Shown one piece after another: positions 45,086-64,000 of a DNA stretch of 64,000 nt. A program made the position numbers and the translations under genes. Within the stretch, counting starts at the first letter, position 1; the number at the start of each line of letters is the position of its first letter. A model generated the notes under the pieces. It was not told the origin of the DNA. It made no database searches and saw only the letters and a list, made by a program, of their open reading frames with translations. The DNA comes from Somniosus microcephalus (taxonomy: Eukaryota), in contig CM126226.1 in the NCBI GenBank assembly GCA_052327205.1, positions 56,420,001-56,484,000 on the forward strand. The letters are read 5' to 3'.

Positions 45086-47270
45086 AGAGGAGGCGGCCTT
45101 CGGTCGGGTGTCCCTGGAGGAGGCGGCCTTCGGTCGGGTGTCCCCGGGAGGAGGCTCCCTTCGGTCGGGTGTCCCCGGGAGGAGGCGGCCTTCGGTCGGG
45201 TGTCCCCGGGAGGAGGCGGCCTTCGGTCGGGTGTCCCCGGGAGGAGGCGGCCTTCGGTCGAGTGTCCCCGGGAGGAGGCTCCCTTCGGTCGGGTGTCCCC
45301 GGGAGGAGGCGGCCTTCGGTCGGGTGTCCCCGGGAGGAGGCTCCCTTCAGTCGGGTGTCCCCGGGAGGAGGCGGCCTTCGGTCGGGTGTCCCTGGAGGAG
45401 GCGGCCTTCGGTCGAGTGTCCCCGGGAGGAGGCGGCCTTCGGTCGGGTGTCCCCGGGAGGAGGCGGCCTTCGGTCGAGTGTCCCCGGGAGGAGGCTCCCT
45501 TCGGTCGGGTGTCCCCGGGAGGAGGCGGCCTTCGGTCGGGTGTCCCCGGGAGGAGGCTCCCTTCAGTCGGGTGTCCCCGGGAGGAGGCGGCCTTCGGTCG
45601 GGTGCCCCCAGGAGGAGGCTCCCTTCGGTCGGGTGCCCCCAGGAGGAGGCTCCCTTCGGTCGGGTGTCCCCGGGAGGAGGCTCCCTTCGGTCGGGTTTCC
45701 CCGGGAGGAGGCGGCCTTCGGTCGGGTGTCCCCGGGAGGAGGCTCCCTTCGGTCGGGTGCCCCTGGAGGAGGCTCCCTTCGGTCGGGTGTCCCTGGAGGA
45801 GGCTCCCTTCGGTCGAGTGTCCCCGGGGGGAGGCTCCCTTCGGTCGGGTGTCCCTGGAGGAGGCTCCCTTCGGTCGGGTGTCCCTGGAGGAGGCTCCCTT
45901 CGGTCGGGTGTCCCCGGGAGGAGGCTCCCTTCGGTCGGGTGTCCCCGGGAGGAGGCTCCCTTCGGTCGGGTGTCCCAGGAGGAGGCTCCCTTCGGTCGGG
46001 TGTCCCAGGAGGAGGCTCCCTTCGGTCGGGTGTCCCGGGAGGAGGCTCCCTTCGGTCGGGTGTCCCGGGAGGAGGCTCCCTTCGGTCGGATGTCCCCGGG
46101 AGGAGGCTCCCTTCGGTCGGGTGTCCCGGGAGGAGGCTCCCTTCGGTCGGATGTCCCCGGGAGGAGGCTCCCTTCGGTCGAGTGTCCCCGGGAGGAGGCT
46201 CCCTTCGGTCGAGTGTCCCCGGGAGGAGGCTCCCTTCGGTCGGGTGTCCCAGGAGGAGGCTCCCTTCGGTCGAGTGTCCCCGGGAGGAGGCTCCCTTCGG
46301 TCGGGTGTCCCAGGAGGAGGCTCCCTTCGGTCGGGTGTCCCAGGAGGAGGCTCCCTTCGGTCGGGTGTCCCGGGAGGAGGCTCCCTTCAGTCGGGTGTCC
46401 CGGGAGGAGGCTCCCTTCGGTCGGATGTCCCCGGGAGGAGGCTCCCTTCGGTCGGGTGTCCCCGGGAGGAGGCTCCCTTCGGTCGAGTGTCCCCGGGAGG
46501 AGGCTCCCTTCGGTCGAGTGTCCCCGGGAGGAGGCTCCCTTCGGTCGGGTGTCCCCGGGAGGAGGCGGCCTTCGGTCGGGTGTCCCGGGAGGAGGCTCCC
46601 TTCGTTCGGGTGTCCCGGGAGGAGGCTCCCTTCGGTCGGGTTTCCACGGGAGGAGGCGGCCTTCGGTCGGGTGTCCCCGGGAGGAGGCTCCCTTCGGTCG
46701 AGTGTCCCTGGAGGAGGCTCCCTTCGGTCGGGTGTCCCGGGAGGAGGCTCCCTTCGGTCGGGTGTCCCGGGAGGAGGCGGCCTTCGGTCGGGTGTCCCGG
46801 GAGGAGGCTCCCTTCGGTCGGGTGTCCCGGGAGGAGGCGGCCTTCGGTCGGGTGTCCCCGGGAGGAGGCTCCCTTCAGTCGGGTGTCCCCGGGAGGAGGC
46901 TCCCTTCGGTCGGGCACCCCTGGAGGAGGCTCCCTTCGGTCGAGTGTCCCCGGGAGGAGGCGGCCTTCGGTCGAGTGTCCCCGGGAGGAGGCTCCCTTCG
47001 GTCGGGTGTCCCCTGGAGGAGGCTCCCTTCGGTCGGGTTTCCCCGGGAGGAGGCTCCCTTCGGTCGGGTGTTCCCGGGAGGAGGCGGCCTTCGGTTGGGT
47101 GTCCCGGGAGGAGGCTCCCTTCGGTCGGGTTTCCCCGGGAGGAGGCGGCCTTCGGCCGGGTGTCCCCTGGAGGAGGCTCCCTTCGGTCGGGTTTCCCCGG
47201 GAGGAGGCGGCCTTCGGTCGGGTGTCCCCTGGAGGAGGCTCCCTTCGGTCGGAGGGCCCCTGGAGGAGGC
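45086..47270. repeat. GC-rich 30/31-bp minisatellite (GGAGGAGGC(TC/GG)CCTTCGGTCGGGTGTCCC(C)G), about 70 copies
   Basis: Head-to-tail units without spacers. Confidence 0.97.
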
Positions 47271-47993
47271 GGCGCTATTTAAATGCGTCCACATCTGGTT
47301 TAGTTTTCGTTGGCCAACAATGCTGCGTTGTTAGTTTCACATAAGCAAAGAGGTCTTTTGACCGATTTGAGCGTTGAGCGTTTTGTATTTTAACGAGTGT
47401 TCTTGCGCATAACGAATCTTCAGTTTCATTGAGGGGAGATTTGAAAGTGCAATATTTGGATCCTTTCATGGGGGCTGTACTGGCACTGGACCTCGCCCTC
47501 TAGCGTCAACATCAGAGGCAACTGAGGCACAGAGAAAGAGTGCAACATGTGGCCAGAGGGAGGAGGCCTTACCCACCCAGGGTATTCCAGCAGCAGATCT
47601 CCTGCATCAATCTCACTGAGGACCAGTGTGTTAGAAGGCTCCATTTCAGCAAGGATCTGGTCACAGAACTCTGCCACCTCCTGCAGCCAGACCTCGACCC
47701 TGAGATCAGGTCCACCAGGGCTCTCTCAGTGGTAGTCAAGGTCACCGTCCCCCTCAATTTCTACGCCAGTGGATCATTCCAGTGTGCAACAGGCAACATC
47801 TCCAACATCTCCCAGTTTGCCGTCCATTGCCCCATCTGCCAGGTCACAGATGCTCTGTACAGAAGGAGAAGGGACTACATTTCCTTCCCCATGAGCAGAG
47901 AGAAGCAGCGCGAGCGTGCATGTGGCTTTGCCAGGACCACGGGCTTCCCCATGGTGCAGGGCGCCATTGACTGCACTCACATCACTTTGCGCG

Positions 47994-48247
47994 TGTTGTG
48001 TATGTAACCGTTTACCTTTAAGGGAACTATAGAATGTGACCGTTCGCCTTTAAGAGCACTACTTCAGGGTGGCACTATTTATTGGCTCATGTATACTGTA
48101 ATACCGATAGTGACCACACCAGTATATAAGGGTTGTGATACGTTAACTAGGGCAGAAATCGCCCAGACCTCTGAATAGTAAAGACCTGTTTTATTTGTAC
48201 TTCTAAAGTCTCTGAAGTTATTTACTGCACAACCTACAGACTTTACA
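47994..48247 (+). repeat. 5' LTR
   Basis: TGTTGTG...CTTTACA, with TATATAA and AGTAAA signals. Identical by eye to the 3' LTR. Confidence 0.97.
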
Positions 48248-48248
48248 G

Positions 48249-48258
48249 TGGCGACGAG
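48249..48258 (+). promoter_or_regulatory. Primer-binding site, complementary to the tRNA-Ser(GCU) 3' end
   Basis: TGGCGACGAG lies 1 nt after the LTR and complements ...CUCGUCGCCA. Confidence 0.8.
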
Positions 48259-49082
48259 TCCGATCGTACCCTGCGGCAAGACTAGCCAGTAGCAGAGAGC
48301 TTCAAAAAGAAAACACGAGGCTCCGTCTACTAAAAGTATAGTACTTACTGGAAGCTGGAAGATTAACAGCAAAGCTGCGGCAGCAACAGGCACAGATTAC
48401 CCTGCTACCACATCTTGAGCGAGCCAATCAGCCTAAAACAAGGCGGCCGAAGAGACTGTGAGTAGTTAAAACAAATAAATTTAAAAAAACGGGGTAGAAG
48501 TATTTGGAGGAGAAGGGCAAAGCATTCGGGTCCAACGGCGTCGGGTGACAGCCGGACCGCGGGCAATGTGAGAAGCCGTGCAGCAACCGCTGCCACGAAG
48601 CGCTGAGCCTGCGAGTAGGCGCGGGTGTGTCAGAGCCGAGAGCCGCGCGAGCGGGGGAGCCAGAGCCGAGCGGGAGGCGTTGCAAGCCAGCGATCGCATC
48701 TCCAGATAAGGGCCGAGAGCCGCGAGAGCGATCGGATCTACAGATAAGGGCCGGCAGCCGCTTCGCGATCCAGCGATCGCATTATAGATAAGGACCGCAC
48801 TCGGGCTGACAGACGGCGTCGGGGGACCGGGTGAAGACCGCCAAGCGCGGGAAAACCGCCATTGAAGTGGGCGGGGAGAGCGAGAAGCACGGGAAAGCCG
48901 CCATTTTTCGGGGAAAACCGCGGAAGAAGAAGGAAGAAGCGGGAAACCGCCATCTTGGAAATTATTAAGAATTTCAGAAAAGTAATAAGATTTTTCAGAA
49001 AGGCTGGTGTGTTCTTAAGAAGAGAGAAGAAAATTAATAATAAGTAAAGTAATACTTGTACTGTTCTCAAAAAGAGAAGAAG

Positions 49083-50237
49083 ATGCCTAAGCGAGGAAAT
49101 ATTAATGACTTTAATGCAGAAATAGAAGACTGGGCCACGTATGTGGAACGCATAGAAATATATTGCGTAGCCAACGAAATTGAGGATGACAACAAGGCAA
49201 TAACTTTGTTAAATTCGATGGGAGCAAAAACATACGGGCTTTTGAAACATCTAATAGCACCAGTTAAACCAGTGGACCAGACCTTCGAAGAGATCGTAAC
49301 AGTGTTGAAGGATCACTTGAACCCCACACCGTTGATGCTGGCTGAACGATTTAAATTTTACGCCAGAACCCAGAGGCAAGATGAAAGCAATGCGGAATAC
49401 TTAGTCGAACTGCGTAAGCTAGCGAAATACTGCCAGTTTGGAGGGAATTTGACAGAGGCGCTGCGGGACAAGTTCGTATGCGGCTTGGCCAAAGAAGGAA
49501 CGCAGAAGCGACTTCTGGAAGAAAACGACCTCACACTGGACAGGGCTGTCCTCATAGCTTCATCGCACGAAGCCGCAGCGAAAGGGACGGCGGAAATGCA
49601 GCTAAAGGCGGCGGCACTCGGGGTGGACCAAATTACAACAAGCACTCCCAAATGCTACCGTTGTGGAAAGACAACGCACGACCAGAATCAGTGCTGGTTT
49701 AAGAACCAAGAGTGCAGGAAATGTGGCAAACTGGGTCACATCGCGAAGGTATGCAGGTCCGGAAAGAAGACCAACAAGCAAAGGAAGCCACCACCACAAG
49801 GAAAGTACAACAAGGTGCATCAGGTGGCTGAAAAGAGTTCAGACGAACAAAATTCAGACTCAGACCCAAACAGCCAGGAGCTGGATAGTCTGAGAATCCA
49901 CCATGTGGGTAAAGTAACTGATCTACAGTTGATCTGGGTCACACTAAAAATAGCGGGAGTCCAAGTACGAATGGAGCTGGACACGGGATCAGCTGTATCC
50001 GTCATCAACCAAAAGGACTATCACCGGCTATTCTCTCACATACCCTTAAGAAATACCAAATTCGTATTACAGACATACACGGGGCATCATGTATACCCCC
50101 TGGGAAAAATACGAGTCAAGGTGAGAGATAGGGGTAAAGAACACCCACGAATGTATCTGTACGTACTACCTGAGGGAGGACCACCACTTCTGGGATGGGA
50201 GTGGATCAAGAAAATAGACATGGAATGGCACTACTGA
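49083..50237 (+). CDS. gag: Gag-protease polyprotein, Mag-type
   Basis: EDWATYVERIE, ERFKFYARTQ and LRDKFVCGL motifs. Two CCHC knuckles (CYRCGKTTHDQNQC, CRKCGKLGHIAKVC). Protease LDTGSAVS and PLLGWEW. ATG at 49083. Confidence 0.92.
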   Translation: MPKRGNINDFNAEIEDWATYVERIEIYCVANEIEDDNKAITLLNSMGAKTYGLLKHLIAPVKPVDQTFEEIVTVLKDHLNPTPLMLAERFKFYARTQRQDESNAEYLVELRKLAKYCQFGGNLTEALRDKFVCGLAKEGTQKRLLEENDLTLDRAVLIASSHEAAAKGTAEMQLKAAALGVDQITTSTPKCYRCGKTTHDQNQCWFKNQECRKCGKLGHIAKVCRSGKKTNKQRKPPPQGKYNKVHQVAEKSSDEQNSDSDPNSQELDSLRIHHVGKVTDLQLIWVTLKIAGVQVRMELDTGSAVSVINQKDYHRLFSHIPLRNTKFVLQTYTGHHVYPLGKIRVKVRDRGKEHPRMYLYVLPEGGPPLLGWEWIKKIDMEWHY

Positions 50238-50243
50238 CAAGCA

Positions 50244-50594
50244 ATGACGAGTGAGGACTCGGTGCAGACAAGCAGCTCAGACTCCGAGCCGGAAGACGAT
50301 AAGTCCAGCTTATGTATGAAAAACAAGATTAACATGAACTCACGGACTAAGGTTGGGAAATCGATGGCGTGCATAAAGACAGAGAATTCTGAGTCTGTTC
50401 AAGCTACAGACAGATGCATTACGGAGGAACACCGGGCTAGAACTCAACGTTATGTCAAAGTACAACGACAATTAGAACAGTTGAGTGCCCCGTCTCCTAC
50501 AAGAGATGGAAAAGGTGAAAAAGTTCTGGGACACCGAATGGGAGTCCCTGGAAAGACAACAGAGACAGCCCACTCAAGCAGAGAGCGACCATAG
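50244..50594 (+). CDS. Cargo ORF A (unknown), in frame with gag-protease after a single TGA
   Basis: The sequence reads CAC TAC TGA CAA GCA ATG. The ORF overlaps ORF B. Confidence 0.4.
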   Translation: MTSEDSVQTSSSDSEPEDDKSSLCMKNKINMNSRTKVGKSMACIKTENSESVQATDRCITEEHRARTQRYVKVQRQLEQLSAPSPTRDGKGEKVLGHRMGVPGKTTETAHSSRERP

Positions 50595-51198
50595 AGCCAT
50601 CGTGGCCAAGTACCAATCACATCTCCCTGAGGCTGTTCAGGAACTAGAATATACACAGAACGATCCAAAGGAAGAGGAATCTTCAGGAAGTCAGGATGGT
50701 ATTCCAGTTCACCTCTACGACTTGTTGCAAGCAGAGTGTAACGAGTTGAAAGAACAGTATGAACAGGCTCGGACTACAATCCTGGAAGGGGTTAACTTGG
50801 CAACTTCCGAAAAGCTCGTGTTAGTGAAAGAACATGAACGACTAAAGGTTGACCATAAGCAAGAATTACAAAGTCTGCAGGAAATGTTTGATGAGCTTCA
50901 GGCCAAGGCTGACTCATCGTTAGGGATTCAATCCATAGGAAAAAAATTAGTGGTGGAAGACATACCAGAACAGGGAATACAGGATGTCCAAGAACTCGTT
51001 AAATTATTAAAGGAAACACAAAATAAATATGAAGCGGCAATGGCCGAGGTCCAACGACTTGAAGAACAGATGCAACTGGAAATCTTTTCAGTGGAAGAAA
51101 AGGGAACTGTAAGAAACACAGAGACCGTAAGAATGGGCCATGAACATGAGCTTAAATCGTCAGAGGAAGAAGGGTTTGGAGCTCTCAAAAGTTATTGA
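50485..51198 (+). CDS. Cargo ORF B: coiled coil resembling ANKRD24/RAI14/UACA-family segments
   Basis: DHRAIVAKYQSHLPEAVQ, IPVHLYDLLQAECNELKEQY and LKETQNKYEAAMAEVQRLEEQMQL match family motifs recalled from memory; not database-checked. Confidence 0.6.
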   Translation: MPRLLQEMEKVKKFWDTEWESLERQQRQPTQAESDHRAIVAKYQSHLPEAVQELEYTQNDPKEEESSGSQDGIPVHLYDLLQAECNELKEQYEQARTTILEGVNLATSEKLVLVKEHERLKVDHKQELQSLQEMFDELQAKADSSLGIQSIGKKLVVEDIPEQGIQDVQELVKLLKETQNKYEAAMAEVQRLEEQMQLEIFSVEEKGTVRNTETVRMGHEHELKSSEEEGFGALKSY

Positions 51199-51784
51199 AA
51201 TAGCCGAGGTTGCAACACAGACTGAGAAGTTGGCAGCAGAGCAACCCTTAGATACCAAAAGTACGCTGACTCATGTCAAGGTTGAACAACAGAACGCTGA
51301 AACAACTGCTCCGGTAGAGGGATTGAATAGTCCGATCAATCAATCTCCAAAGGAAGTTGAAGTATTAAAATCACAAATGAGGTCATTAGTAAACAACTTG
51401 CTGAAAGCCCAGAAAAAGTTAGAGGAAGCGGAACACGTGAAGAAGTCTCTTCAGGAAAGATGTCTGGATTTGGAACAAAAGCTGGCTGACGTCCAGCTGG
51501 GTAGGGAGGACATAGAAGACCCTCTCGCTGGCCTAGCTCAGGACGACTCCGAATATTACTATGTCCTGTCCTGCCCAACTTGTAACTTCGACTCCCACCA
51601 TACAGAAATCATGGAGGAGCACCGAAAGTCTACGGAACATCGGGAGAAGGTGGCTCTACTACGAAAAAGGAGGAAGAGAAGGAGGAACTGCGCATGCAGC
51701 TGGCAGCTGACAGTGGAGCTCAGAGAGTCTCCAAGAAGCAGAAAAGGAAAAGTCGAAACAGAAGATGACCCATCTGAACCATGA
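51140..51784 (+). CDS. Cargo ORF C: optineurin-like coiled coil, C2H2 (U1/matrin-like) zinc finger and basic NLS
   Basis: EVATQTE...EVEVLKSQMRSLVNNLLKAQKKLEEAEHVKKSLQERCLDLEQK, then CPTC-x12-H-x5-H, then RKRRKRRR. Confidence 0.6.
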   Translation: MNMSLNRQRKKGLELSKVIEIAEVATQTEKLAAEQPLDTKSTLTHVKVEQQNAETTAPVEGLNSPINQSPKEVEVLKSQMRSLVNNLLKAQKKLEEAEHVKKSLQERCLDLEQKLADVQLGREDIEDPLAGLAQDDSEYYYVLSCPTCNFDSHHTEIMEEHRKSTEHREKVALLRKRRKRRRNCACSWQLTVELRESPRSRKGKVETEDDPSEP

Positions 51785-52143
51785 TTACCTCTACCAGATC
51801 ACACACGTGGTCCCTCCGAACGGAGCCAATTCAGTTCGGAAGTTCAAACTGTTAAACCCATGGAAGGACTATTGAATGAGTCACTCCAGCAATGTGAACC
51901 GACTACACCACAGAGACTGAATCTATGAACTGTTTTCCACAGAGACTGAATCTGTGATTTGTTTTGACATGAAGTTATATATGTTATTATGTTATGTTAA
52001 ACATGAAGTTATATGACGTTGACTCCATCGAGAGTATATCTGTAAATTGTTATATGACGTTGACTCCATCGAGAGTATATCTGCAACCTGTTTATATAAA
52101 ATTGAAGATTGTATGTTTAACGGGATTCTGTAAGTAATAAGCT

Positions 52144-52156
52144 AGGAAGGGAGGAG
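52144..52156 (+). promoter_or_regulatory. Polypurine tract
   Basis: AGGAAGGGAGGAG abuts the 3' LTR. Confidence 0.9.
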
Positions 52157-52410
52157 TGTTGTGTATGTAACCGTTTACCTTTAAGGGAACTATAGAATGT
52201 GACCGTTCGCCTTTAAGAGCACTACTTCAGGGTGGCACTATTTATTGGCTCATGTATACTGTAATACCGATAGTGACCACACCAGTATATAAGGGTTGTG
52301 ATACGTTAACTAGGGCAGAAATCGCCCAGACCTCTGAATAGTAAAGACCTGTTTTATTTGTACTTCTAAAGTCTCTGAAGTTATTTACTGCACAACCTAC
52401 AGACTTTACA
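52157..52410 (+). repeat. 3' LTR
   Basis: 254 bp, followed by the TSD GCGCG. Confidence 0.97.
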
Positions 52411-52704
52411 GCGCGCATCTCATAACAATCCTGAGCTATTCCATAACTGCAAAGGCTACCGCTCATGTAATGTGCAGTTGGTATGCGACCACACATGGCG
52501 GATCCTGACCGTCAATGCCCGCTATCCTGGCAGCAGCCACGATGCCTTCATCCTGTGCCAGACCAGCGGGCCAGATCTATTCCAGCCTCCACATGAAGCT
52601 TGCGGCTGGCTGCTGGGAGACGAGGGCTATCCGCTCTCCACCTGGCTCATCACTCCCCTCCTCAACCCCAACACTCCTGGCCAGCACTCATACAATGAGA
52701 GCCA

Positions 52705-53204
52705 NNNNNNNNNNNNNNNNNNNNNNNNNNNNNNNNNNNNNNNNNNNNNNNNNNNNNNNNNNNNNNNNNNNNNNNNNNNNNNNNNNNNNNNNNNNNNNNN
52801 NNNNNNNNNNNNNNNNNNNNNNNNNNNNNNNNNNNNNNNNNNNNNNNNNNNNNNNNNNNNNNNNNNNNNNNNNNNNNNNNNNNNNNNNNNNNNNNNNNNN
52901 NNNNNNNNNNNNNNNNNNNNNNNNNNNNNNNNNNNNNNNNNNNNNNNNNNNNNNNNNNNNNNNNNNNNNNNNNNNNNNNNNNNNNNNNNNNNNNNNNNNN
53001 NNNNNNNNNNNNNNNNNNNNNNNNNNNNNNNNNNNNNNNNNNNNNNNNNNNNNNNNNNNNNNNNNNNNNNNNNNNNNNNNNNNNNNNNNNNNNNNNNNNN
53101 NNNNNNNNNNNNNNNNNNNNNNNNNNNNNNNNNNNNNNNNNNNNNNNNNNNNNNNNNNNNNNNNNNNNNNNNNNNNNNNNNNNNNNNNNNNNNNNNNNNN
53201 NNNN
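52705..53204. other. Assembly gap (500 N)
   Basis: Run of N. Confidence 1.
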
Positions 53205-53958: not shown

Positions 53959-56012
53959 AGAGAGAGAGGGGGAAGGAGGAGAGAGAGAGAGAGGAAGGAG
54001 GAGAGAGAGAGAGGGGGAAGGGGGAGAGAGAGAGGGGGAAGGAGGAGAGAGAGAGGGGGAAGGAGGAGAGAGAGAGAGGGGGAAGGAGGAGAGAGAGAAG
54101 GAGGAGAGAGAGAGAGGGGGAAGGAGAGAGAGGGGGGGAGGAGAGAGCGAGGGGAAGGAGGAGAGAGAGAGAGAGGAGGAAGGAGGAGAGAGAGAGGGGG
54201 AAGGAGGAGAGAGAGAGGGGGAAGGAGGAGAGAGAGAGTGGGAAGGAGGAGAGAGAGAGAGGGGGAAGGAGGAGAGAGAGAGAGGGGGGAGGAGGAGAGA
54301 GAGAGAGGGGGGAGGAGGAGAGAGAGAGGGGGGAGGAGGAGAGAGAGAGAGGGGAAGGAGGACAGAGAGAGGGGGAAGGAGGAGAGAGAGAGGGGGAAGG
54401 AGGAGAGAGAGGGGGGGAAGGAGGAGAGAGAGAGAGGGGGAAGGAGGAGAGAGAGAGGGGGAAGGAGGAGAGAGAGAGGGGGAAGGAGGAGAGAGAGAGG
54501 GGGGAAGGAGGAGAGAGAGAGAGGGGGAAGGAGGAGAGAGAGAGAGGGAGAAGGAGGAGAGAGAGAGAGAGGGGGAAGGAGGAGAGAGAGAGAGAGGGGG
54601 AAGGAGGAGAGAGAGAAGGAGGAGAGAGAGAGAGGGGGAAGGAGAGGGGGAAGGAGGAGAGAGAGAGTGGGAAGGAGGAGAGAGAGAGGGGGGAAGGAGG
54701 AGAGAGAGAGAGGGGGGAGGAGGAGAGAGAGAGAGGGGGAGGAGGAAGAGAGAGAGGGGGAGGAGGAGAGAGAGAGAGGGGGAAGGAGGACAGAGAGAGG
54801 GGGAAGGAGGAGACGAGAGAGAGGGAGAGAGGGGGGGAAGGAGGAGAGAGAGAGAGGGGAAGGAGGAGAGAGAGAGGGGGAGGAGGAGGAGAGAGAGGGG
54901 GGAAGGAGGAGAGAGAGAGAGGGGGAAGGAGGAGAGAGAGAGAGGGGGAAGGAGGAGAGAGAGAGAGAGGGGGAAGGAGGAGAGAGAGAAGGAGGAGAGA
55001 GAGAGAGGGGGAAGGAGAGAGGGGGAAGGAGAGAGGGGGAAGGAGGAGAGAGAGAGAGAGAGGGGGAAGGAGGAGAGAGAGAGAGAGAGGGGGAAGGAGG
55101 AGAGAGAGAGGGGGAAGGAGGAGAGAGAGAGGGGGAAGGAGGAGAGAGAGGGGGGAAGGAGGAGAGAGAGAGAGGAGGAAGGAGGAGAGAGAGAGAGGGG
55201 GAAGGAGGAGAGAGAGAGAGGGGGAAGGAGGAGAGAGAGAGTGGGGGAAGGAGGAGAGAGAGAGAGAGGGGGAAGGAGGAGAGAGAGAGAGGGGGAAGGA
55301 GGAGAGAGATGGGGGAAGGAGGAGAGAGAGAGGGGGGGAAGGAGGAGAGAGAGAGAGGGGAAGGAGGAGAGAGAGAGGGGGAAGGAGGAGAGAGAGAGGG
55401 GGAAGGAGGAGAGAGAGAGGGGGAAGGAGGAGAGAGAGAAGGGGAAGGAGGAGAGAGAGAGGGGGAAGGAGGAGAGAGAGGGGGGGAAGGAGGAGAGAGA
55501 GAGGGGGAAGGAGGAGAGAGAGAAGGGGAAGGAGGAGAGAGAGAGGGGGAAGGAGGAGAGAGAGAGGGGGAAGGAGGAGAGAGAGAAGGGGAAGGAGGAG
55601 AGAGAGAGGGGGAAGGAGGAGAGAGAGAGGGGGAAGGAGGAGAGAGAGAGGGGGAAGGAGGAGAGAGAGAGAGGGGGAAGGAGGAGAGAGAGAGAGGGGG
55701 AAGGAGGAGAGAGAGAGAGAGGGGGAAGGAGGAGAGAGAGAGAGGGGGAAGGAGGAGAGAGAGAGAAGGGGAAGGAGGAGAGAGAGAAGGGGAAGGAGGA
55801 GAGAGAGAGGGGGAAGGAGGAGAGAGAGAGGGGGAAGGAGGAGAGAGAGAGAGGGGGAAGGAGGAGAGAGAGAGAGGGGGAAGGAGGAGAGAGAGAGAGG
55901 GGGAAGGAGGAGAGAGAGAGAGGGGGAAGGAGGAGAGAGCGAGGGGGAAGGAGGTGAGAGAGAGAGGGGGAAGGAGGAGAGAGAGGGGGAAGGAGGAGAG
56001 AGAGAGAGAGGG
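53959..56012. repeat. GA-rich polypurine repeat (GGGGGAAGGAG(GA)n)
   Basis: About 2 kb of almost pure purine. Confidence 0.97.
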
Positions 56013-57032
56013 TGATCTAAAATGTCACTTTATTTGTATATCTACACTATTTCTGCACATTCTTGTTTTTAAAAGATTGTTTTGAAAGATCAATGAAATC
56101 TGTGAGAAAACAATGATTAAACTTTGAAGGATTAGGTTCCCCTATTGACTCTGATGGCTTCGTTAGCAAATGCACGAAATGAGTTTTACACTGAGCCACA
56201 CGGATCGGGGAGGTATCGGAGATCAATCCCTGTGTTGTGCAGAATGAGTTGATCTCCGTTGCGAAGGGTCAGTCGGCACACTATAGTTAACCTCACAGCC
56301 CCTGAGTTAAATCAGCCTGGTACAATTTGTCGATGTCTGGTCGGGATGTGAGGTCAGGATTGGGCTCCGGAAGGGTGGTGGAAATTTGGAACTCGCTCCC
56401 CCAAAAGGATGTCGATGCTGGGGGCCAATTGAAATTTTCAAGAATGAGACTGATAGATTTTTGTTAGGTATGGGTGTCAATCGATGTGGAACAAGGGCGG
56501 GTAAATAGAGTTGAGGTAAAGATCAGTAATGATCTAATTGAATGGCAGAACAGGCTCGAGGGGCTGAATGGCCTCCTCCTGTTCCTATATTTCTGCAGAT
56601 TAGACTGTGATTCTCCCCATGACTAAGCAGCCTGCCAATACACATGGTCTGGACTCACATGAAGAGCAGTCACTTCAGTAAGGTACCTGTGGAATTGTAT
56701 GTGTGGCAGCGCCATCAGAAGCAAGGGAGGAATCGTGAATAAAAGTTTGGAGAATCTGTAAAGTCATGTGATGCTCCGAGTGGAGCGTTCCATTTTACCA
56801 GACGTCTGAAGGGAGGTGCACAATGATGCAATTGGTGCTGCAATACTATTGGAGCACTGACCACATAGGCAATAGATACTCCTTAAGTTTATTAAAGAGT
56901 GAAGAACTCTTCCTGAAAGTTGTACTGTATTTATGTGCACCGCAGCAATATGATGTAAACTTTCCTATTGATTCTATATAGTTTGAAAGCTGAATTCGAG
57001 AATCAGACTGTATTAGGAACCGAGTCTACCTG

Positions 57033-60904: not shown

Positions 60905-61558
60905 TCAATTTCAATTTCAATTTTTAATGGTCACATAACTAAATACAAGAAGTGTAATCTAGTCAGTGAAATGTTTTTTTCTTGAGGAGCCGAGAGCACC
61001 AAGCAGCAAGAACACTGCGCTGCCTGGTACGCACGGAGCTCGCAAGGACGGCAGCCATCTTCATCGGCGCCATCACAAAAAAACACAGACCGACATATAC
61101 ACGCATACATACTTAAAATATAAATAAAGCAGACATAAAATAAATAAAAGACATAAAAAGACAGTACATAAAATGAACAAGCAATAATGTAAAGAAAAGT
61201 AATTTCTACAGTAATTACATTGATATTTCTACCCAGGCTTCTAGAATAATCTCTGGTTACAGGGTGGCCGCACTGGGAGAGCAACTTATAATTAAATAAA
61301 TTTAATTAATTAATTAATTAATTAATAAAATTAAATAAATAAAGTGCCCCCTCAGTCTTTCTTGATGTTTCCATCTTGGTCTCTCTCGATGTTTCCCCTC
61401 TCTCTCTCTCGATGTTTCATCTGTCTTTCTCGATGTTTCCTCTGTCTTTCTCGATGTTTCCTCTCAGTTTTTCTCGATGTTTCCCCTCGGTTTCTTCCAC
61501 ACACCTGGCCTGCACATTACTCTGGCTGTCCAACTTGGCGTCCTGGTAACCGGGTTCC

Positions 61559-63683
61559 GCTCCAGCTCTCATCCTTCAAACTGTCTCTCCAGCTCTCATC
61601 CTTCAAACTGTCTCTCCAGCTCTTGACCTTCAAACTGTCACTCCAGCTCTCGTCTTTCAAACTGTCTCTCCAGCTCTCGACCTTCAAACTGCCTCTCCAG
61701 CTCTCGACCTTCAAACTGTCTCTCCAGCTCTCGACCTTCAAACTGTCTCTCCAGCTCTTGAGCTTCAAACTGTCACTCCAGCTCTCGTCTTTCAAACTGT
61801 CTCTCCAGCTCTCGACCTTCAAACTGTCTCTCCAGCTCTCATCCTTCAAACTGCCTCTCCAGCTCTCGACCTTCAAACTGTCTCTCCAGCTCTCATCCTT
61901 CAAACTGTCTCTCCAGCTCTCATCCTTCAAACTGTCTCTCCAGCTCTTGACCTTCAAACTGTCACTCCAGCTCTCGTCTTTCAAACTGTCTCTCCAGCTC
62001 TCGACCTTCAAACTGCCTCTCCAGCTCTCAACCTTCAAACTGTCTCTCCAGCTCTCATCCTTCAAACTGTCTCCCCAGCTCTTGACCTTCAAACTGTCAC
62101 TCCAGCTCTCGTCTTTCAAACTGTCTCTCCAGCTCTCGACCTTCAAACTGTCTCTCCAGCTCTCATCCTTCAAACTGTCTCTCCAGCTCTTGACCTTCAA
62201 ACTGTCACTCCAGCTCTCGACCTTCAAACTGTCTCTCCAGCTCTCGACCTTCAAACTGTCACTCCAGCTCTCGACCTTCAAACTGTCTCTCCAGCTCTCG
62301 ACCTTCAAACTGTCTCTCCAGCTCTCGACCTTCAAACTGTCTCTCCAGCTCTCGACCTTCAAACTGTCTCTCCAGCTCTCGACCTTCAAACTGCTCTCTC
62401 CAGCTCTCGACCTTCAAACTGTCTCTCCAGCTCTCGACCTTCAAACTGTCACTCCAGCTCTCGACCTTCAAACTGTCACTCCAGCTCTCGACCTTCAAAC
62501 TGTCTCTCCAGCTCTCGACCTTCAAACTGTCACTCCAGCTCTTGACCTTCAAACTGTCTCTCCAGCTCTCGACCTTCAAACTGTCACTCCAGCTCTTGAC
62601 CTTCAAACTGTCTCTCCAGCTCTCGACTTTCAAACTGTCTCTCCAGCTCTCGACCTTCAAACTGTCTCTCCAGCTCTCGACCTTCAAACTGTCTCTCCAG
62701 CTCTCGACCTTCAAACTGTCACTCCAGCTCTCGACCTTCAAACTGCCTCTCCAGCTCTCGACCTTCAAACTGACTCTCCAGCTCTCGACCTTCAAACTGT
62801 CACTCCAGCTCTCGACCTTCAAACTGTCTCTCCAGCTCTCGACCTTCAAACAGTCACTCCAGCTCTTGACCTTCAAACTGTCTCACCAGCTCTCGACCTT
62901 CAAACTGAGTCTCCAGCTCTCGACCTTCAAACTGTCTCTCCAGCTCTCGACCTTCAAACTGTCACTCCAGCTCTCGACCTTCAAAATGCCTCTCCAGCTC
63001 TCGACCTTCAAACTGTCTCTCCAGCTCTCGACCTTCAAACTGTCTCTCCAGCTCTCAACCTTCAAACTGTCTCTCCAGCCCTCGACCTTCAAACTGTCAC
63101 TCCAGCTCTCAACCTTCAAACTGTCACTCCAGCTCTCGACCTTCAAACTGTCTCTCCAGCTCTCGACCTTCAAACTGACTCTCCAGCTCTCGACCTTCAA
63201 ACTGTCACTCCAGCTCTCGACCTTCAAACTGTCTCTCCAGCTCTCGACCTTCAAACTGTCACTCCAGCTCTTGACCTTCAAACTGTCACTCCAGCTCTCG
63301 ACCTTCAAACTGTCTCTCCAGCTCTCGACCTTCAAACTGTCACTCCAGCTCTCGACCTTCAAACTGTCTCTCCAGCTCTCGACCTTCAAACTGACTCTCC
63401 AGCTCTCGACCTTCAAACTGTCTCTCCAGCTCTCATCCTTCAAACTGTCTCTCCAGCTCTCGACCTTCAAACTGTCACTCCAGCTCTCGACCTTCAAACT
63501 GTCATTCCAGCTCTCGACCTTCAAACTGTCACTCCAGCTCTCGACCTTCAAACTGTCTCTCCAGCTCGCGACCTTCAAACTGTCTCTCCAGCTCTCGACC
63601 TTCAAACTGTCACTCCAGCTCTCGACCTTCAAACTGTCTCTCCAGCTCTCATCCTTCAAACTGTCACTCCAGCTCTCGACCTT
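61559..63683. repeat. 27-bp minisatellite (CTCCAGCTCTCGACCTTCAAACTGTC(T/A)), about 78 copies
   Basis: Head-to-tail units. Confidence 0.97.
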
Positions 63684-64000
63684 GAACAGATAAAGCTAGG
63701 CTGACACTCCAGTGCAGTACTGAGGGAGTGCTGCACTGTCGGAGGTGCTGTCTTTCGGATGAGTCTTTAAACCGAGGCCCCGTCTGCTCTCTCAGGTGGA
63801 TGTAAAAGATCCCATGGCACTATTTCAAAGAAGAGCAGGGGAGTTCCCCCCAGTGTCCTGGCCAATATTTATCCCTCAATCAACATCACAAAAAAAAACA
63901 GGTTATCTGGTCATTATCGCATTGCTGTTTGTGGGAGCTTGCTGTGCACAAATTGGCTGCTGCATTTTCTACATTACAACAGTGACTACACCCCAAAAAG
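63681..64000 (+). mobile_element. DeuSINE body, runs off the window end
   Basis: Deu core matches the other copies. Confidence 0.88.

Follow-up and report, generated by a model that had tools for sequence, protein, structure and literature searches.

Host exons joined exon-end to exon-start in a gag-protease LTR element of Somniosus microcephalus, likely through capture of a circular ANKRD24 RNA

Introduction

Pseudogenes derived from circular RNA (circRNA) are defined by a reversed exon junction, and 33 high-confidence mouse copies of circRFWD2 lie near long terminal repeat (LTR) sequence, with a mechanism of formation that was called mysterious (Dong et al., 2016; PMC4897178). LTR-mediated retroposition is a second related system, in which, according to the passages of the source drawn on here, template switching is guided by microsimilarity with a median of 6 bp (Tan et al., 2016; PMC5131818). 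The present analysis concerns 64,000 nucleotides (nt) of DNA from Somniosus microcephalus (assembly GCA_052327205.1, contig CM126226.1, positions 56,420,001 to 56,484,000), hereafter the window, which contains a non-autonomous Gypsy-type gag-protease LTR element. In this element, exons of a host ANKRD24-like gene are joined exon-end to exon-start, likely (probability about 0.82) because a co-packaged circular ANKRD24 RNA was captured as the template of the insert.

The element resembles the circRFWD2 copies in that exons are joined in reverse order in genomic DNA, a poly(A) tail is lacking, and copies are many, and the mouse copies are also LTR-associated (MMERVK10C-int, Fig. 1D legend; Dong et al., 2016; PMC4897178). 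However, those 33 copies were called pseudogenes, whereas the shark genome shows the junction at 1,681 places within whole LTR elements, together with entry and exit microhomologies, an insert-free relative, an in-frame Gag-protease fusion, two separate back-splice joins, and one full circle turn. With the retrocopies described in the consulted passages of Tan et al., it shares host RNA replacing part of an internal open reading frame, short shared sequence at both switch points, multi-gene chimeras, sense transcription, and further rounds as a non-autonomous element; in contrast, the words “circular” and “circRNA” are absent from the main text of that paper, and its copies occupy few insertion sites, compared with thousands of matches for the shark family (Tan et al., 2016; PMC5131818). 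Maize Bs1 is likewise an LTR element that carries parts of three cellular genes in frame and has undergone secondary retroposition, but it has one to five copies, and the passages on it mention no back-splice join (Tan et al., 2016; PMC5131818). A literature search with limited coverage of subscription papers, and without the supplements of the two key papers, turned up neither this shark family nor a Gag-fused in-frame back-splice junction.

The ANKRD24-like insert and its host gene

A sequence-only reading of the window had noticed three peptides of the ANKRD24/RAI14 family in apparently permuted order, and had taken them as intron-less mRNA captured with at least two template switches and fused in frame. 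The peptides are indeed located at 50587–50640, 50698–50760, and 51007–51078, within one stop-free frame of 237 codons (50485–51198; the element's features described in this text are on the plus strand). This frame gave only seven matches among 2,039 candidates, all of them shark ankycorbin/ANKRD24-like proteins (E 1.6e-45 to 3.4e-30), and the matches that follow next after the shark proteins are coelacanth and tetrapod ANKRD24; on these protein matches, the source would be named an ANKRD24-like gene rather than RAI14 or UACA. Aligned with the protein P0005, the frame falls into two blocks, query 20–52 matching residues 1044–1080 and query 51–236 matching residues 490–675, so that the C-terminal block comes first and the permuted order is borne out. 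The second and third peptides are colinear parts of one exon, which reduces the three proposed segments to two.

The join between the two blocks falls on exon boundaries of a host gene in the same genome, whose 3' exons, mapped within 200 kb of the locus, comprise a large exon of 1,512 nt, then exons of 165 nt and 66 nt, and a last exon. The first peptide belongs to the whole 66-nt second-to-last coding exon (50575..50640; host C13:62873348-62873413, AG/GT-bounded), with 58 of 66 nt identical to the host, while the other two belong to the first ~512 nt of the large exon (50641..51152; host C13:62861849 onward), with 425 of 508 nt identical (84%); in the host, the large exon is situated 11.6 kb upstream of the 66-nt exon. 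The entry microhomology and the tail of the preceding 165-nt exon, which is normally spliced to the 66-nt exon, occupy 50564..50574, a region altered in the window copy and identical to the host at 15 of 16 positions in subfamily B. Since this tail is joined to the 66-nt exon as in a spliced transcript, the template was spliced RNA, and the intron-less capture stands; introns are removed in both the ANKRD24-like and the STK10-like pieces of this lineage. Non-specific coiled-coil similarity with no nucleotide match to a host gene, the outcome that could have overturned the earlier reading, is rejected by the two-block protein alignment and the nucleotide match to host exons.

A search with the part of the protein that is absent from the element found one strong locus (C13, 95% identity) and two distant paralogues (38–39%), and the captured piece had no blastn match in the two paralogue loci (3.3 kb each). 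Judged from these comparisons, the C13 locus is certainly the source of the insert.

In the host ANKRD24-like gene, the intron that separates the 165-nt and 66-nt exons contains a type-B copy of the element in antisense orientation (G000:C13:62867070-62871961, L038/L039), with a 5-nt target duplication and LTRs that differ at four of 255 positions. This copy and the gene's own large exon constitute a 96% inverted repeat in the pre-mRNA. Its placement there by chance is possible, and the region has several related elements. The copy was considered as a founder or as a host-converted copy and rejected as either: it differs from the host exon at 25 positions, and the median in 30 copies is 24.

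Exon-end to exon-start joins

The join at 50640..50641 has the signature of a back-splice: the 66-nt exon ends at its GT, the large exon begins after its AG, and no base is gained or lost. All 30 subfamily-A loci have it, as do 29 of 30 subfamily-B loci when scored by exact motif. The three ANKRD24-like exons sum to 1,743 nt, which is divisible by three, and contain no stops; a circle of these exons would therefore keep the frame. In a chance test on 1,956 nt covering five host exons only, one of 3,968 in-frame backward joins with at least 4 nt of microhomology was exon-end to exon-start.

A second join of this kind occurs in family D, in which Gag-protease is joined in frame to STK10 exons at 97–100% identity, and the reversed-order junction is again exact at both splice sites. 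The insert begins inside one STK10 exon, continues across three further exons, returns to base 1 of an earlier one, and stops 14 nt past its own starting point, which is one full turn of a five-exon circle and what a circular template would give. The five exons sum to 1,245 nt without a stop, and only 2 nt are shared at the reversed join, which was found in five of six loci (L104 gave no match to the motif), the repeated end being present in all six. Of 110 candidates scored for family D, 93 matched, including a few host or paralogue exons, and six loci were inspected (family loci L104-L109, L131, L132; the LTRs of L132 are 98% alike). Its insert begins where autonomous relatives start reverse transcriptase (RT) and ends just before their integrase-end motif.

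Only exons from within the predicted circles are present in the elements, with no match to flanking exons or introns of the ANKRD24-like or STK10-like gene. No genomic tandem duplication explaining the exon order was found for either gene in the present assembly, where a lost duplication would be possible. Every other mapped switch point lies inside an exon, and both order-reversing joins lie exactly on splice sites.

The copies are numerous. The insert junction pattern that gave the 1,681 genomic matches gave none as a reversed control; among the first 100 matches listed, 19 were of type A, the window's type, and the rest of type B. The large-exon piece is 643 nt at 96% identity in subfamily B and ~512 nt at 84% in subfamily A, and the insert-free relative, type C, has 3,663 genomic matches. 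When C, B, and the host genes are compared, the ANKRD24 piece of subfamily B shows an exact match of seven shared bases at its entry and another of seven at its exit, which fits two template switches. The proposal of at least two switches thus holds for entry and exit, but the permutation itself, an exact donor–acceptor join, is best interpreted as the back-splice of a circular RNA and not as a switch on mRNA. The flanking STK10 and optineurin pieces, the large copy number, and the contrast between a broken window copy and mostly open copies elsewhere (25 of 29 A loci) go beyond what the earlier reading had covered.

Proposed route of capture

On the circular-template reading, a circular ANKRD24 RNA would have been co-packaged with the element RNA, and reverse transcriptase would have switched onto it, copied across the back-splice junction, and switched back. 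The RT would have been supplied by a partner element and the copies moved in trans by autonomous relatives. The lineage may have arisen in four steps. An autonomous gag-pol relative would first have lost RT, ribonuclease H (RNase H), and integrase, replaced by the full turn of the STK10 circle (family D); the enzyme may have exited after one turn because RNase H had already destroyed the template behind it. An optineurin and a zinc-finger piece would then have been added (family C), after which the ANKRD24 circle piece would have taken the place of ~40 nt where STK10 and optineurin meet (family B). The window's subfamily A would finally have resulted from an in-frame deletion together with a C-type 3' end.

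By its sequence features, the insert would qualify both as a circRNA-derived retrocopy and as an LTR-mediated retrocopy, the host piece lying between two LTRs in place of internal sequence. The mechanism that the paper on circRNA-derived pseudogenes had left open (PMC4897178) is thereby tied, in this genome, to LTR template switching, which is a likely route for writing circular RNAs back into genomes. The genome holds the pieces from which the mechanism can be read, namely, young two-LTR copies, an insert-free relative, entry and exit microhomologies, two back-splice joins, and one full turn, and the reading predicts an exit after one turn and a bias toward frame-keeping circles. The species' circular RNAs would be recorded in its own DNA. 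Host exon pieces have spread to over a thousand copies of a transcribed family and will confuse circRNA detection and gene annotation.

Open frames, selection, and expression

The in-frame fusion noted earlier is confirmed, as the ANKRD24 blocks lie within one stop-free frame. A single frame stays open all the way from Gag to the tail in 25 of 29 other A loci, in 21 of 30 B loci, and in 11 of 20 C loci; the A and B loci were the best-scoring copies and were not drawn at random. The window copy is broken by a stop at 50235-50237, which ends Gag-protease and at which the 29 other copies compared differ, and by frame breaks near 50488, 51167, and 51663, common to none of the 29; these may be genuine or may stem from errors in the assembly.

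Between A and B, Gag-protease shows strong conservation (omega 0.08). The ANKRD24 insert has an omega of 0.60 in the same comparison, against a simulated neutral median of 0.73, with 19.5% of simulations as low; only 54 of 4,000 neutral runs keep it stop-free. The ANKRD24 piece thus drifts almost neutrally yet stays stop-free, and purifying selection on the captured residues, which would mark a domesticated retrogene, was not found. The piece may be a passenger, with selection acting on an open frame to the tail and not on the captured residues; phase-0 exon circles would fit this view because such circles keep the frame.

RNA depth over the join was 446 on one strand and 5 on the other in run X14, at 90% likeness, which pools related families, and the majority strand is sense under the usual stranded protocol. 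Runs X14 and X15 were assigned by the species label of near-identical DNA, and they may come from a species other than the window's.

A purely functional explanation holds that the captured coiled coils are in use, with the Gag fusion binding partners of ANKRD24, optineurin, or STK10 and aiding assembly, transport, or escape from autophagy. The identified captures are all in frame and rich in coiled coils, and the frames mentioned above are often open in a transcribed family. Nevertheless, this explanation appears unlikely: the omega of the insert does not differ from neutral, subfamily A has lost part of the insert, the insert-free family gives more matches (3,663 vs. 1,681), and the youth of the copies (median 0–1 differences in 450 nt) alone keeps frames open within a subfamily. 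Similarly doubtful is a broader version of the circular-template reading, in which the lineage would repeatedly use circular RNAs as templates and keep the phase-0 ones, and the resulting transcribed Gag-protease polyprotein, with its tail of coiled coils from ANKRD24, STK10, and optineurin, would be used against host trafficking or autophagy.

Alternative templates

Several observations weigh against the circular-template reading and the passenger view that accompanies it. The ANKRD24 join carries 4 nt of microhomology, though a switch on linear mRNA at this position is improbable, and a linear RNA with repeated or trans-spliced exons would give the identical join. Host circles were not observed; no RNA data set was listed as containing the host exon, the last exon of the host gene has zero depth in RNA runs X14 and X15, and the 38 RNA reads that carry the join onto the 66-nt exon are all element-type. 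The order of events D, C, B, A comes from nested junctions and not from a rooted tree. Another trim of the A-versus-B comparison of the insert gave an omega of 0.50 (confidence interval 0.31–0.78), and weak constraint on its residues is possible. The protein product of the frame from Gag-protease to the tail is a predicted one.

A linear RNA with repeated exons, produced by trans-splicing or transcribed from a since-lost tandem exon duplication and captured by two switches, would account for the same exact join, and the lack of an observed circle suits it. It is nonetheless quite improbable, as 200 kb of the host ANKRD24-like locus held no second large exon (element copy aside), only one strong genomic match was found for the 3' half of that exon, the event would be needed at two genes, and the end of the STK10 insert 14 nt past a full turn is explained directly by a circle. 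The view of the sequence-only reading that extra template switches on linear mRNA scrambled the exon order draws on the 4 nt shared at the ANKRD24 join and on a lineage that switches often, at 5–12 nt microhomologies and with in-frame deletions, but it is very unlikely indeed, given that the other switch points are all intra-exonic while both order-reversing joins lie exactly on splice sites, that only one of 3,968 comparable joins does so for ANKRD24, and that STK10 shares only 2 nt.

Other features of the element and the window

The element as a whole (47994-52410) has identical 254-nt LTRs and a 5-nt target duplication. The 5' LTR (TG...CA; 47994..48247) shows no differences from the 3' LTR (52157..52410), and the same 5-mer is present on both flanks (47989-47993 and 52411-52415). 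A primer-binding-site-like stretch, its role suggested by its position directly after the 5' LTR, occupies 48249..48260, followed by Gag with CCHC knuckles and an aspartic protease (49083..50237; PF13650 E 4e-5; PF00098), and a polypurine tract precedes the 3' LTR (52145..52156). No RT or integrase frame was found among the open reading frames of the window element, which, with its LTRs, target duplication, Gag, and protease, is a non-autonomous Ty3/Gypsy element. Its CCHC-knuckle Gag, protease, LTRs, and 5-nt target duplication resemble those of Ty3/Gypsy elements presumed to be of the Mag/K02A2.6 type, from which it differs in that host-derived sequence replaces RT, RNase H, and integrase.

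Upstream of the ANKRD24 insert, 50249..50569 consists of spliced, internally deleted pieces of three STK10-like exons (76–91% identity; G000:C8 167.192-167.197 Mb), and the far side of the STK10 circle is represented at 51788..51880 by what remains of the beginning of the large STK10-like exon (84–87% identity). In between, a spliced optineurin piece in normal exon order (51141..51513; 81–89% identity to exons at C17:85.885-85.890 Mb) meets the ANKRD24 piece at a near-repeat of 12 nt. The STK10-like gene has one intron with GC-AG ends (G000:C8:167193682, L117). Autonomous gag-pol relatives, degraded but carrying RT and integrase-like frames (L118/L119, C8:167.20-167.21 Mb; L129, C17:85.93 Mb), are located inside or beside the STK10 and optineurin loci.

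The zinc-finger-like motif and basic tail at 51514..51751, with weak C2H2 jaz/met-type matches below the cut-off, is probably of host origin too and would be the fourth captured piece: part of it is matched by a 1,714-nt contig of run X1 whose flanks are unrelated, which suggests a fourth captured gene. A search for its source gave no source match, only generic C2H2 look-alikes with low recognition scores. A suspected resemblance to DNAJC21 was not confirmed, as a PF21884 search gave one locus, presumably DNAJC2, with no match to the tail.

The element interrupts another open frame, which we take to be a Harbinger-type transposase (flanks 47504-47993 and 52411-52705), and contigs of run X10 cross the empty insertion site in related copies of these flanks. 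RNA reads of X14 and X15 skip 315 nt of gag (49313-49629) with ends that are not GT..AG, possibly reflecting a deleted subfamily. Elsewhere in the window, there are three long tandem or low-complexity arrays (45088-47260, 53960-56015, and 61550-63695), of which one has a GC-rich unit of ~30 nt, one consists of purines only, and one has a 27-nt unit.
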